Of a stretch of DNA of 64,000 nt, positions 12,088 through 16,689 are shown one piece after another. Every line of letters starts with the position of its first letter. Positions within the stretch are counted from its first letter, which is position 1. Below the pieces are notes generated by a model that was given only the letters and a program-made list of their open reading frames with translations, was not told the DNA's origin and made no database searches. A program made the translations under genes and the position numbers. The DNA is from Pelagerythrobacter sp. (GTDB lineage Bacteria > Pseudomonadota > Alphaproteobacteria > Sphingomonadales > Sphingomonadaceae): assembly GCF_041912895.1 (NCBI RefSeq), contig NZ_JAYSGI010000002.1, positions 521,339 to 585,338 on the forward strand, given 5' to 3'.

Positions 12088-12791
12088 CAGCCGCCGGTGG
12101 GCGCGGCGACCGAAACGGTCAAGACCTCTTCCGCCGCGCCGCCGATCAGCATCGTGACCGCCAGCGTGCGCGAGAGATCGGGGGCGACCGTCCAGGCATA
12201 GGCGAGCGTGCGATCGCGCGACATGCCGCCACCCTGCGTCGCCGTGTTCGCGCCGGGTGCGGCAGTGGCGGGCAAGCCGTCGCCGCCGCAATCGGCGACT
12301 TGCGTCTGAATGATGTCGGGCCTGGCCAGCGGCTCGGCCAGCGCGTCGCCCTGGTCGAGCACCCAGCGGTATTTCTCGTTGTCGCCCGCGCGGCCCTGCC
12401 GCTCCCACACGGTGGTGAAATAGCCCGTGCTGCCGTCGGGCCGCTGCCATGCGCCGCGCGTGACCGAAAGCGAGCCGTCGCAGCTCGCCCAGACCTCATG
12501 CGGCTGCCACTGGACTGGCTGCGGCGGATCGGCGCGGCCGGACAGCCATTCGCGCGCGTTGACCGCCTCGGGCACGAACATCACCGCATCGCCGGTCGAA
12601 AATTCGCGGAAGGCGGTCCACTGCCCTTCCTCGCGCGCCTCGCGGGCGAAGGCGAGTTCGGCGGCCACCACCGCGCTCGGGTTGGCCTGCTCGGACAGCG
12701 AGCGATAGAAGCGCGTGCGCGGATCGTTGCTCCCGCTCGCGCAGCCGGCGAGCAGCGCGGCGATGCAGCCCAGCGCGAGCAGGTTCCTCAT
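12087..12791 (-). CDS. Lipoprotein with NTF2/SnoaL-like (DUF4440-type) domain
   Basis: Lipobox LLAGC; AELAFA...WQP...[11 protein letters not shown]...GYFTTVW; TGATG coupling to marC. Confidence 0.75.
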
Positions 12792-13684
12792 ATCGCATCC
12801 TCCGCCAGCGCGATTCCGGCGTTGCGGTGCGCGGCGACGAGCGTGTTCCTGAGCAGCACGGCGATCGTCATCGGGCCGACCCCGCCCGGCACCGGGGTGA
12901 TCGCGCCCGCGACCGCGCGCGCCTCGGCAAAGGCGACGTCGCCCACCAGCCGCCCCTTGGCCGTGCCGGGTTCGGGCGCCAGGCGGTTGATGCCCACGTC
13001 GATCACCGTCGCGCCGGGCTTCAGCCAGTCGCCCTTCACCATTTCCGCACGCCCGACCGCCGCGACGACGATGTCCGCGCGCCGCACCACGCCGGGCAGA
13101 TCCTTCGTCCGGCTGTGCGCGATGGTGACGGTGGCGTTGGCATCGGTGAGAAGCTGCGCCATCGGCTTGCCGACGATGTTCGAACGGCCGATGACGACCG
13201 CGTCCAGCCCCGAAAGATCGCCCAGCCGGTCGGCCAGCAGCATCATGCAGCCCAGCGGTGTGCACGGGACGAAGCCGCGCCGGCCCACGGCGAGCCGCCC
13301 GGCGTTGATGACGTGGAACCCGTCCACGTCCTTGTCCGGGTCGATCGCGGCGATCACCGCCTGTTCGTCGATATGTTTCGGCAGCGGGAGCTGCACGAGG
13401 ATGCCGTCGACCGCCGGATCGGCATTGAGCCGTTCGACCAGCGCGAGCAGGTCGGCTTCGGACGTATCGTCAGCCAGCCGGTGCTCGAAACTTTCCATGT
13501 TGGCGGCGAGCGTGGCCTTGCCCTTGCTGCCGACATAGACCTGGCTCGCCGGATCTTCGCCCACCAGCACCACCGCGAGGCCCGCCTTGCGCCCCGCCGC
13601 AGCGGCGAAATCGGCCGCCAGCGCGCCGACCTTCTCGCGCAGGGCGGCGGCGAACGCCTTTCCGTCGATAATGTCGGCCGCCAT
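12788..13684 (-). CDS. folD: Methylenetetrahydrofolate dehydrogenase/cyclohydrolase
   Basis: [44 protein letters not shown]. Confidence 0.97.
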
Positions 13685-13968
13685 CAATAGCCCACGGCGA
13701 CGTAGATCAGCACGCGCATGAAGATCTGCAGCGCGATGATGAGCACCAGCGGCGAGAAGTCGATCGCGCCCGTTTGCGGCAGGATGCGCCGGATTGGGGC
13801 GAGCACCGGCTCGAGCAGCGAATTGATCGAGGTGTAGATCTGCGCGAGGAATTCGTTGCGCTGGTTGATGACGTTGAACGCGAACAGCAGCCCGATGATG
13901 AACTGGATGATGACGAGCATCACCACCACGTTGATCAGCATGCCGAGGATGTCGATGATGAGACCCAC
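13684..13968 (-). CDS. yggT: YggT family membrane protein
   Basis: [24 protein letters not shown]; GTG start. Confidence 0.92.
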
Positions 13969-14053: not shown

Positions 14054-14947
14054 TCAGCCGGCGCGGATCAGCGTGCCCGCCCCGCGCGCGGTGAAGAATT
14101 CCAGCAGCATCGCGTGCGGCACCCGCCCGTCGAGCACCACCGCGGCCTCGCACCCCGCCTCGACCGCGTGGACGCAGGTTTCCAGCTTGGGGATCATGCC
14201 GCCGCCGATCGTGCCGTCTTCGCGCAGGCGGGCGATATCGGCGGGGGTGAGATCGCTGAGCAGCTCGCCGCCCTTGTCGAGCACGCCGGGAACGTCGGTC
14301 AGCAGGAACAGCCGCGCCGCGCCCAGCGCAGCGGCGATCGCGCCCGCCATGGTGTCGGCGTTGATGTTGTAGGTGTGGCCGTCCTCGCCAGCGCCGATCG
14401 GGGCGACGATCGGGATCATTCCGGCGCCGACAGCGGTATCGATCACCCGCGTATCGACCGCCGAGGGCTCGCCCACGAAGCCGAGATCGACCGCCTGCTC
14501 GATATTGCTGTCTGGGTCCTTCGCGGTGCGCTGGACTTTCGTCGCGGTGACGAGCCCGCCGTCCTTGCCCGAGATGCCCAGTGCCTTGCCTCCGGCCTGG
14601 TTGACCCAGCCGACGAGTTCCTTGTTGATCGCGCCCGACAGGACCATCTCGGCCACTTCGGCGGTCGCCTTGTCGGTCACGCGCAAGCCGTCGACGAACG
14701 TGCTCTCCACCCCCAGCTTCTTCAGCATCGCGCCGATCTGCGGCCCGCCGCCGTGGACCACCACGGGGTTGATGCCGACCGCCTTCAGCAGCACGATATC
14801 GTTGGCGAACTCGCGCGCGGCTTTTGGATCGCCCATCGCATGGCCGCCGTATTTCACCACGAAGGTGCGCCCGGCATAGCGCTGGAAATAGGGCAGCGCC
14901 TCGATCAGCACCTGGGCCTTGGCGATCGTCGCCGTCTCGTCGCTCAT
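14054..14947 (-). CDS. argB: Acetylglutamate kinase
   Basis: [42 protein letters not shown]. Confidence 0.97.
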
Positions 14948-15034
14948 ATTCGCAAAAACCTTCCCTGCCTGCCGCGCCCTAGCGACTGCGCGGGGGCGAG
15001 GAAAGCGATGATCTGCCGCGTGCCGGACAGGTCT

Positions 15035-15051
15035 TTAACGCCATCTAAACC
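15035..15051 (+). promoter_or_regulatory. CtrA-like box upstream of the Arg-rich mini-gene
   Basis: TTAA-CGCCATC-TAAA(CC): TTAA-N7-TTAA with one mismatch. Confidence 0.5.
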
Positions 15052-15132
15052 GTGCCGCGCATAGCCTGCTGCGCGGTTCGTCCCGAGCCTGCGCGATGCG
15101 GGCCGCGGACCGTTTGGAAAGGCGACGATCCA

Positions 15133-15285
15133 ATGACCGAGACCGGACGCGATTCGCATGCAAAGGCGGCCGATCGCCGCAAGGGCGACCGCCGCACGAA
15201 GCAGGAGCCATTCGCCGGGCCGGACCGGCGCGTCGGTGCCCGCCGCTCGGGCAAGGATCGCCGCGGCGCCGAGCGGATCGGTTAA
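15133..15285 (+). CDS. 50-aa arginine-rich peptide with FxGPDRR and four DRR motifs (candidate c-di-GMP binder)
   Basis: MTETGRDSHAKAADRRKGDRRTKQEPFAGPDRRVGARRSGKDRRGAERIG; AAAGG RBS 10 nt upstream. Confidence 0.7.
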   Translation: MTETGRDSHAKAADRRKGDRRTKQEPFAGPDRRVGARRSGKDRRGAERIG

Positions 15286-15298
15286 ACCTGCGATTAAC
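15283..15298 (+). promoter_or_regulatory. CtrA-like box
   Basis: TAAA-CCTGCGA-TTAAC overlapping the mini-gene stop, upstream of the 15401 gene. Confidence 0.35.
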
Positions 15299-15400
15299 GC
15301 GCTCCGTCCGGCGACGGCGCGGGGCAAACCGCCGCAACCGCGGGAGCTTTGCCGCACCTAGCCCGTCCTATCCATCTCGCCATTGAGAAGGATGGATACG

Positions 15401-15784
15401 ATGAACAGGATTCTCACGCTTTCGATCGCCCTCGCGCTCGGCGCCGGCGGCACGGCGGCGCACGCGCAGATCGTCGGCGGCACGACCGGTTCGGTCGAAG
15501 GCGCCGTCGGCCCCGTCACCGGCAATGTCGATACGACCGTGAATGCCGAAGCGGACGACCTCACCGGTCCGGTCAACGATACCACCACGCGGGTGCGCGA
15601 CACCGCCGACGAGACCGTCGACCGCACACGCGACACGACCGAAGAGGTGGTGGATCATGCCGATCACACCGTCGACGAAGCCGACGCCAGCGCCGATGTC
15701 GATGCGACGGTGGAAGCCGATGCCGACGACACGAGCGTCTCGGCCGACACCGAAGCCGAAGTGGATGCCGATCCCGAGGTCTGA
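15401..15784 (+). CDS. Secreted acidic low-complexity protein
   Basis: Signal peptide ending AHA-Q; mature part rich in D/T/A/V/E. Confidence 0.8.
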   Translation: MNRILTLSIALALGAGGTAAHAQIVGGTTGSVEGAVGPVTGNVDTTVNAEADDLTGPVNDTTTRVRDTADETVDRTRDTTEEVVDHADHTVDEADASADVDATVEADADDTSVSADTEAEVDADPEV

Positions 15785-15805: not shown

Positions 15806-15834
15806 AAAGGGCGGCGGGCGACTGCCGCCCTTTT
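15806..15834. terminator. Bidirectional intrinsic terminator
   Basis: AAAGGGCGGC...GCCGCCCTTTT between convergent genes. Confidence 0.8.
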
Positions 15835-16689
15835 CTATGCGCGCGCGGTCGCCTGCATCGCCTGTCGCCCGTCGCGCGCGAATGCCGCCAGTTCGATTGC
15901 GCCGTCCTTGCGCTTCATCGCGAGATGCAGCGGCTCCCCCGCGATCGCCGGGCTCATCCCGCGAAAGGCGAAGCTCGCGAGCGCGTTGTCGCCCAGTTCT
16001 TGCGCCGCCAGTTGCAGCAGCAGGCTGGCGGTCAGCGGCCCGTGGACGACGAGCCCGCGATAGCGCTCCACTTCCTCCGCATAGGGCGTGTCGTAATGGA
16101 TACGGTGAGTGTTGAAGGTCAGCGCCGAATAGCGGAACAGCACGCGCGGATCGGGCTGGACCACGCGGTGCGCATCCCATCCGGCGGGATCGAAGGCGCC
16201 TTCGTCCGACGGCGGGGGCGACAGCGGCGCGTTGGGCGCGGCGGCCTCGCGATAGACCAGCGTCTGCACCTCGCGCACCGCCGACACGCCGTCGGCGGCG
16301 GTTTCGTGCGCCACTTCGACGAAGACCATCGGGCCGCTGCGCCCCTCCTTCGCGGCGATCGAGGCGACGCGGGAAACGCGCTCGATCGCGGCGCCGACCG
16401 CGATGGGAGCGTGGAATTCGATCGCGCTGGAAGCCCACATCCGGCGCGCCAGCGGCACCGGTGGGAGGAAGCTGTCGGGGCTGTCGTCGCGCGCCGGATG
16501 CCCGTCCTCGCCCAGCGTGGCGGTCGGCGCGTCGGGGGTGCAGAGGCAGAAGTGGCTGCCCTGCGGCATCGCGGCGCCGGGTGCGGGCGGCGGCAGATCG
16601 AACGCGGCGCACCACCGCGCCGCGAGCGCAGGGTCGAGCCGATCCGCGCGGCGCTCCTCGCGCCCGATCCATGCCTGCCAGTCGCTCAT
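15835..16689 (-). CDS. Double hot-dog hydratase, mesaconyl-C4-CoA / itaconyl-CoA hydratase (Meh/Ich/HTD2)-like
   Basis: WQAWIGRE, LGEDGHP, LPPVPLARRMWA, LFRYSALTFNTHRIHYD..Y....E.Y.GLVVHGPL. Confidence 0.85.
   Translation of the reverse strand: MSDWQAWIGREERRADRLDPALAARWCAAFDLPPPAPGAAMPQGSHFCLCTPDAPTATLGEDGHPARDDSPDSFLPPVPLARRMWASSAIEFHAPIAVGAAIERVSRVASIAAKEGRSGPMVFVEVAHETAADGVSAVREVQTLVYREAAAPNAPLSPPPSDEGAFDPAGWDAHRVVQPDPRVLFRYSALTFNTHRIHYDTPYAEEVERYRGLVVHGPLTASLLLQLAAQELGDNALASFAFRGMSPAIAGEPLHLAMKRKDGAIELAAFARDGRQAMQATARA

Follow-up and report, generated by a model that had tools for sequence, protein, structure and literature searches.

An arginine-rich mini-protein family encoded in Sphingomonadaceae, often beside argB: a candidate stand-alone c-di-GMP-binding module

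Does the short open reading frame that lies back to back with argB in this Pelagerythrobacter genome encode a genuine protein and, if so, could that protein bind c-di-GMP by itself? The question is raised by a stretch of 64,000 nucleotides (the window), in which an earlier note had pointed out a 50-codon frame with a ribosome-binding site, four DRR triplets, the sequence PFAGPDRR and an upstream TTAA-N7-TAAA element; re-reading of the sequence found all of these as described. The product had been proposed to be a free-standing c-di-GMP sponge or effector, by analogy with the arginine-rich region (ARR) of the Caulobacter Cle proteins. That interpretation, taken as a whole, is partly supported.

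The frame lies on the forward strand; it opens with the ATG at 15133 and closes with a TAA codon at 15283-15285; the gene, including the stop, is thus 15133..15285, as placed from the list of open reading frames and from homologues found by phmmer and profile searches. A Shine-Dalgarno-like GGAAAGG (15116..15122, + strand) is situated 10 nt 5' of the ATG. The 50-residue product, MTETGRDSHAKAADRRKGDRRTKQEPFAGPDRRVGARRSGKDRRGAERIG, contains 14 arginines (28%) and has a net charge of about +7. There are four DRR triplets (residues 14-16, 19-21, 31-33 and 42-44), and residues 26-33 read PFAGPDRR. The Pfam and NCBIfam collections gave no domain match. An AlphaFold2 model is essentially all coil with one four-residue helical turn (pLDDT 72, pTM 0.21), a prediction in keeping with a peptide that takes up structure only once its ligand is bound.

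Composition offers a modest signal for coding. The codon log-odds score of the small frame, 0.17 per codon, is the best among the six frames and corresponds to the 94th percentile among all ATG-initiated frames of 40-70 codons; real genes score 0.49-0.93. When all six frames of this 2.85-Mb genome (about 68% GC) are translated, the pattern [YFW]xGPxRR has 30 matches and GPDRR 63, almost all of them off-frame, and the expectation for [YFW]xGPxRR is about 0.7 per 64-kb window. The motif by itself is within chance; it is conservation that lifts this frame above it. On the opposite strand, a 137-aa frame with a GTG start (14944-15357) covers the conserved boxes described below, and its TGA overlaps the argB ATG (ATGA). 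Both this frame and a 100-aa frame on the same strand have poor codon scores (about 0 for the 137-aa frame) and are unconserved; they were judged spurious.

In an exhaustive phmmer search of 1.84 billion representative sequences, 22 proteins reached E<=1e-3; with few exceptions they are 48-64 aa long and 52-70% identical. A profile search of a 5.8-billion-protein collection extended this to 444 or more clusters, with lengths of about 47-93 aa. Where names are given, they read 'hypothetical protein', and the sources include Porphyrobacter, Erythrobacter, Aurantiacibacter and Sphingomonadaceae metagenome-assembled genomes. The expectation that annotation pipelines would miss such a gene has to be divided: the frame and at least 444 relatives are in fact called, but all carry the uninformative name. 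For one 49-aa DRR-repeat member (P0018) a single source gives the name 'TfoX/Sxy family transcriptional regulator of competence genes', which is almost certainly an annotation error. A word-index protein search had returned the window's own protein only; this was a false negative, overturned by phmmer and by blastn of the segment against 400 Sphingomonadaceae genomes, which gave short significant matches (best E=2.7e-8) whose in-frame translations are look-alike peptides. A protein search of 40 relatives gave weak matches only, none of them beside argB.

The distribution of the family was mapped with a six-frame profile search. At E<=1e-3, about 30-37 of 401 Sphingomonadaceae genomes, representing 23 of 112 genera, contain a match; these are ATG-initiated frames of 44-75 aa, each with a Shine-Dalgarno-like sequence. 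At E<=1e-5, 25 of 301 genomes of the same order have one, all of them Sphingomonadaceae, and none was found in 400 genomes of other Alphaproteobacteria. The window locus is the top match (72.9 bits, E=4.8e-20). The same search gave no match in congeners, and all seven lack the small frame. Because the gene is absent from 7/7 congeners and from about 90% of Sphingomonadaceae genomes, it must be dispensable.

Alignment of the family (A1) gives the consensus M-x12-DRRxGDRRxAQxPFxGPDRRxGxRRSGxDRRxxPR, with about 12 invariant columns that include R15 R16, R20 R21, D31, R33, R37 R38, G40 and R43 R44. Membership of this DRR-repeat family was defined from the alignment by a length of 44-60 aa, an ATG start, five RR pairs at fixed spacing (15/16, 20/21, 32/33, 37/38 and 43/44) and G40; the window protein has all of these features, with every invariant column present. 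Each RR pair is mostly preceded by D or E. ATG is the start codon in 25 of 25 aligned genomic copies, and a GGAG or GAGG run lies 6-11 nt 5' of it in nearly all members. At the invariant arginine columns three to five different codons are used (drawn from CGC, CGG, CGT, CGA, AGG and AGA), and the aspartate columns have both GAC and GAT; pairwise dN/dS values within the family fall mostly between 0.2 and 0.7, and changes at third codon positions are in excess. This synonymous variation at invariant residues, together with these dN/dS values, shows that conservation acts at the amino-acid level. On such comparative grounds the small frame is evidently a translated gene, and we have very little doubt that it is a real member of a conserved, unannotated small-protein family. 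The claim of a stand-alone mini-protein is thereby borne out: the gene is genuine and conserved in many genomes. Two expanded members, L095 (75 aa) and L096 (67 aa), were also observed, one with up to nine consecutive xDRR units (…DRRDSDRRGGDRRSDDRRGDDRRDGDRRDGDRRK…) followed by YxGPERR; repeat number is therefore evolvable.

The position of the gene is a further shared property. In the window the order is folD (12788-13687), yggT (13684-13968) and argB (14054..14947, - strand; acetylglutamate kinase, PF00696, E=1.5e-47), with the small frame divergent from argB, which serves as the conserved syntenic anchor. Among 30 loci from the six-frame search, 13 (the window included) have argB divergent from the mini-protein gene, directly or with one gene between, and these belong to seven genera. 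Six further contexts of stand-alone members come from isolates and metagenomes; four of them repeat the complete folD-yggT-argB arrangement facing the small frame, with start codons that are 134-158 nt apart. Overall this distance is 134-185 nt. The remaining two stand-alone contexts, and that of a PilZ fusion discussed below, are not at argB. The earlier suggestion to look for conserved small frames beside argB thus met with a positive answer, in at least seven genera. Downstream, by comparison, the neighbours vary (PPK2, sulfotransferase, DUF465, SNase or, in the window, an acidic secreted protein) and are convergent in several loci. A recurrent argB-linked position combined with a variable downstream gene indicates that the argB-linked position is ancestral in the family.

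Several individual arrangements deserve mention. L068 (G412:C11:237447-237782) has two tandem paralogues beside argB, a PFxGPDRR-type and an IAHPDRR-type copy, and a gene for PPK2 (polyphosphate kinase 2) lies downstream in both L068 and L069. In L070, L074, L077 and L082 a gene for a protein of 147-187 aa separates argB from the mini-protein gene. It has the same orientation as the mini-protein gene, whose open frame follows 3-50 nt after its end; the two may form a small operon in these loci. In the window, the gene 3' of the small frame (15401-15784, followed by a terminator at about 15810-15840) encodes a 127-aa acidic protein that has a signal peptide and then a body rich in D, E, T and A, and that is conserved in the genus.

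In all seven congeners the spacer between argB and this downstream gene is about 230 nt shorter and has no small frame. TAAACC repeats, at 15048-53 and 15285-90, flank the extra 237 nt or so in the window. A lineage-specific insertion or mobile element was considered and rejected, as there is no second copy of the segment's DNA elsewhere in the genome and the argB-linked gene occurs in at least six other genera; either the congeners lost the mini-protein gene or this lineage regained a copy by recombination. Alignment with the congeners is ambiguous at this point because the argB-proximal element is apparently duplicated. Colinear repeats, TGCCGCGC(c/a)TAGC..CTGCGCGG and GGAAAG-CGA-GATC, each occur twice, in 14970-15016 and in 15053-15132; one copy of the duplicated element adjoins argB (14970-14993) and the other lies just 5' of the small frame (15053-15076). 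From their sequence, these twin elements suggest that part of the argB promoter region has been duplicated.

Alphaproteobacterial CtrA boxes have the form TTAA-N7-TTAAC. The element upstream of the small frame, TTAAC-N7-AAAC (TTAACGCCATCTAAAC; 15035-15050, + strand, 98 nt upstream of the ATG), resembles such a box with a weak second half overlapping a -35 position, and CtrA could bind here. It is the single match to TTAAC-N7-MAAC in the 64-kb window, where 0.06 would be expected. The feature is shared: 14 of 27 family loci have, at -80 to -104, a TTAAC followed 7 nt later by what is mostly a [C/A/G/T]AAC half-site, and a GCTAnnn-like element comes 10-14 nt after the family box. In the window, GCATAGCC (15059..15066, + strand), 8 nt after the box, is a possible -10 element as read from the sequence; a sigma-70 consensus scan of the intergenic region detected no promoter. 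An EcfG-type or sigma-54-type reading of the upstream box was rejected, with GGAAC present in two loci only and the spacing wrong. The cell-cycle-dependent behaviour proposed in the earlier note has this CtrA-like box as its one indication and is among the weaker points of that interpretation. A second box of the same kind, TAAA-N7-TTAAC (TAAACCTGCGATTAAC; 15283..15298, + strand), overlaps the stop codon of the small frame and lies about 100 nt upstream of the ATG at 15401. It is unique in the window (0.00 expected) and is kept as CTAAACCnnCGATTAAC in six of the seven congeners (L023 reads GATGAAC), all seven being devoid of the small frame. This second, better CtrA-like box is the putative box of the downstream gene (ATG 15401).

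To what extent does the mini-protein resemble a known c-di-GMP binder? Nesper et al. (2017) defined the ARR by tandem copies of [Y/F]XGP[D/E][R/K]R; among the 302 hits that they obtained, 5% lacked a known domain. Hee et al. (2020) reduced binding to DRR-x11-(R/K)RxxD, as contained in the 19-mer DRRRFNSADYKGPRRRKAD, which has a Kd of 177 nM. In their full alanine and deletion scan, single deletions at S160, A161 or D162 keep Kd values of 338-439 nM; D172A raises the Kd of the 19-mer from 177 to 1,719 nM, a cost of about 10-fold, and Y163A and G165A, at 25-fold and 43-fold, are among the most damaging changes (Hee et al., 2020). The Cle motif as given in the earlier note agrees with both definitions. 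When the family is placed in register with the 19-mer, D19 R20 R21 correspond to D154 R155 R156, F27 to Y163, G29 P30 to G165 P166, R32 R33 to R168 R169, and residue 36 to D172, with a family linker that is one residue shorter.

In a census of 53 family sequences, [DE]RR-x10/11-[RK]R-xx-[DE] was found in 41; the exact x11 form accounts for 9 (7 strictly with D) and the x10 form with D or E for 32. At least one full aromatic-x-G-P unit is present in 26 of the 53, and about half have none, reading for example IAHPDRR or IDAEERR. One subfamily matches DRR-x11-[R/K]RxxD exactly (…DRRVAEDPGYKGPERRKAD…; a member with the exact motif is MAVDDEKRAPSDRRSADRRVAEDPGYKGPERRKADRRSGKDRRSFD). In a related comparison, L083 (of a subfamily exemplified by …SDRRSADRRVAEDPGYKGPERRKADRR…) has an ungapped identity of 11/19 to the 19-mer, including YKGP..RKAD, with a pairwise BLASTP E=6e-5. 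In composition-matched shuffles the family pattern arises about 1-2 times per million, and the partial pattern of the window protein 5.5 times per 10^6. Judged on these frequencies, the family shows a specific match to the minimal c-di-GMP-binding peptide.

By sequence, the protein of the window itself is among the weaker family matches to the CSP motif. It has one full unit, F27-A-G-P-D-R-R33, and the others are degenerate (KGDRR, VGARR and SGKDRR), so that the tandem arrangement of Cle proteins is lacking. D19RR-x10-R32R33-VG-A36 is one residue short of DRR-x11-(R/K)RxxD and is missing the final acid; Thr occupies the position of R157, and Ala36 that of D172.

Statistical comparison at the level of homology is less favourable, and homology of the family to the Cle ARR is not established statistically by these sequence searches. 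Alignment of the family with the Cle ARR by hhalign covers 11 columns (P=0.0043, probability 8%), and BLASTP of the window protein against CleD gives E=0.004, a single comparison, as is the value for L083. The profile had no match among PDB sequences. A six-frame, genome-wide search with the CleD peptide in 10 sphingomonad genomes recovered the small frames at E of about 1.4, among noise; matches in two genomes (G173 and G200) were noise inside ordinary genes. These 10 genomes yielded no significant CleD-ARR-like sequence, and a Cle-type protein combining CheY and ARR seems to be absent from these sphingomonads.

A further association with c-di-GMP comes from domain fusions. In three protein clusters, 63-76% identical to one another and from independent assemblies, the module is N-terminal to a PilZ domain whose RxxxR and DxSxxG motifs are intact; a PilZ match is recorded for two of them (P0008 and P0027), and the motifs of the third (P0028) were read by eye. 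The window protein (P0001) has no match to PF07238. Its genome encodes 14 GGDEF proteins.

Taken together, these features lead to a reading to which we give about even chances: the mini-protein may be a stand-alone, ARR-like c-di-GMP-binding module that acts as a sponge or as a ligand-induced adaptor. It would be transcribed from its own promoter region, carrying the CtrA-like TTAAC-N7-nAAC box and placed back to back with argB. The strongly basic, 50-residue chain would be intrinsically disordered and would fold only upon binding c-di-GMP, probably as an intercalated dimer of the ligand. Its DRR units would act as in the Caulobacter Cle arginine-rich region and in the engineered CSP peptides, with arginine side chains directed to the Hoogsteen edges of the guanines, aspartates to base edges, and the phenylalanine of FxGP stacked on a guanine. 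As a sponge, the module would buffer free c-di-GMP; as an adaptor, it would engage a partner protein once the ligand is bound. The ligand, its stoichiometry, the role as sponge or effector and CtrA control are all points that we infer. A bolder version, which we hold only tentatively and consider somewhat doubtful, regards the protein as a natural counterpart, in marine-type sphingomonads, of the engineered sequestering peptides: a chain of about 50 residues without a domain, composed almost wholly of DRR units that grip guanine, which would be expressed from a CtrA-type promoter and would soak up c-di-GMP or hand it over. Equally tentative are the corollaries that one chain might accommodate more than one dimer and that no smaller natural receptor or buffer of c-di-GMP would be known. 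The conserved divergent pairing with argB may point to a connection of c-di-GMP with arginine metabolism.

Other explanations differ in how much of the locus they accept. That there is no gene at all, the frame being a chance product of GC-rich intergenic DNA or the remnant of the lineage-specific insertion of about 237 bp, is very improbable. The seven congeners without the segment, the TAAACC repeats at both bounds, the solitary hit of the word-index search, the abundance of the motif in six-frame noise and the modest codon score could all be read this way, but a protein whose conservation extends over many genera, and whose invariant residues are encoded by differing synonymous codons, could not, nor could an argB-linked position shared with other genera and the lack of a second DNA copy in the genome. 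A role tied to argB, in which translation of the frame would sense the supply of arginine or Arg-tRNA, or the peptide would modulate acetylglutamate kinase or the divergent promoter, would make good sense of ten invariant arginine codons arranged in doublets and of the divergent arrangement with 134-185 nt between starts (13/30 loci and 4/6 contexts, in at least seven genera). Classical attenuation is impossible, because the frame is transcribed away from argB. Leader-peptide attenuation was accordingly discarded as a candidate: there is no terminator in 15285-15401, Rfam has no family in the intergenic region, and the downstream genes differ or are convergent. Nor is there an antiterminator or a conserved gene 3' of the frame, Asp, Gly, Phe and Pro are conserved besides Arg, more than half of the loci are away from argB, and the PilZ fusions would be left unexplained; an argB-tied role is therefore improbable.

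The more serious competitor accepts a real, basic and disordered mini-protein but gives it a different polyanionic partner, for example RNA, the ribosome, DNA, polyphosphate or another guanine nucleotide like (p)ppGpp, the likeness to the Cle ARR being convergent or coincidental. Binding in the CSP mode needs fewer RR pairs than the five that are invariant, so another polyanionic ligand is possible. The net charge of about +7, the predicted coil, the loss of the aromatic-x-G-P unit in about half of the members, the absence of significant homology to the Cle ARR and a PPK2 gene adjoining the frame in two genomes all agree with this explanation. It accounts less well for the acidic residue before almost every RR and the fixed Gly and Pro, which are untypical of plain nucleic-acid-binding arginine-rich motifs, for an ordered DRR-x10/11-[RK]RxxD match with a frequency of about 1e-6 by composition, and for the three clusters with a PilZ fusion. 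A different polyanion is, in our judgement, a real but rather unlikely answer, and likewise the idea that the resemblance arose by convergence or coincidence.

If c-di-GMP binding by the stand-alone module is correct, bacteria would possess natural mini-proteins for buffering or relaying a second messenger, and there would exist a receptor class that is invisible to domain-based annotation. To our knowledge, the well-studied c-di-GMP receptors are all folded domains or tails of such domains. That 19 residues suffice for binding was established by protein engineering (Hee et al., 2020), and the literature searched contained no paper on natural stand-alone ARR proteins. The family would also be a source of ready sequence variants, of use in sensors and in sequestering peptides directed against biofilms. 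Should the ligand prove to be another, these small proteins still form a well-defined and strongly conserved family, whose promoter box is conserved as well and whose linkage to argB calls for an explanation.

Comparison with known systems helps to place the family. With the trpL, hisL and pheL leader peptides it has in common a small frame rich in one amino acid that adjoins a biosynthesis gene for that amino acid; it differs in being divergent, in having no attenuator hairpins, in its conserved non-Arg sequence, in its length (50 aa against 14-30) and in the many copies that lie away from arg genes. The RxxD I-site of GGDEF proteins and the RGD-x8-RQDD motif of BldD are bipartite Arg/Asp motifs that bind c-di-GMP as intercalated oligomers and are carried on folded domains. 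Recognition by a pair of Arg and Asp would be shared with these, whereas in the mini-protein the motif would constitute the whole protein. PilZ receptors (PF07238) are connected to the family through the three fused relatives and, presumably, through the use of flexible Arg-rich segments to grip c-di-GMP; unlike them, the window protein has no PilZ β-barrel.

The closest parallel is that with the Cle proteins and the CSP peptides, a module that is unfolded when free of ligand and takes up an intercalated c-di-GMP dimer with nM-uM affinity. Cle proteins carry their ARR as a C-terminal extension of a CheY-like receiver domain, whereas the mini-proteins stand alone. The Cle units are in tandem with two or three RR pairs, whereas in the window protein a single aromatic unit is complete and there are five RR pairs; the family linker is usually one residue shorter, Ala replaces D172 in the window protein, and the family was found in Sphingomonadaceae only. 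What both share is a short, linear, disordered stretch rich in Arg and Asp, the [Y/F]xGP[D/E][R/K]R unit, an occurrence in Alphaproteobacteria and, in most members of the family, the DRR-x10/11-[RK]R-xx-[DE] pattern, which in one subfamily reaches 11 identities over the 19 residues of the minimal binder.
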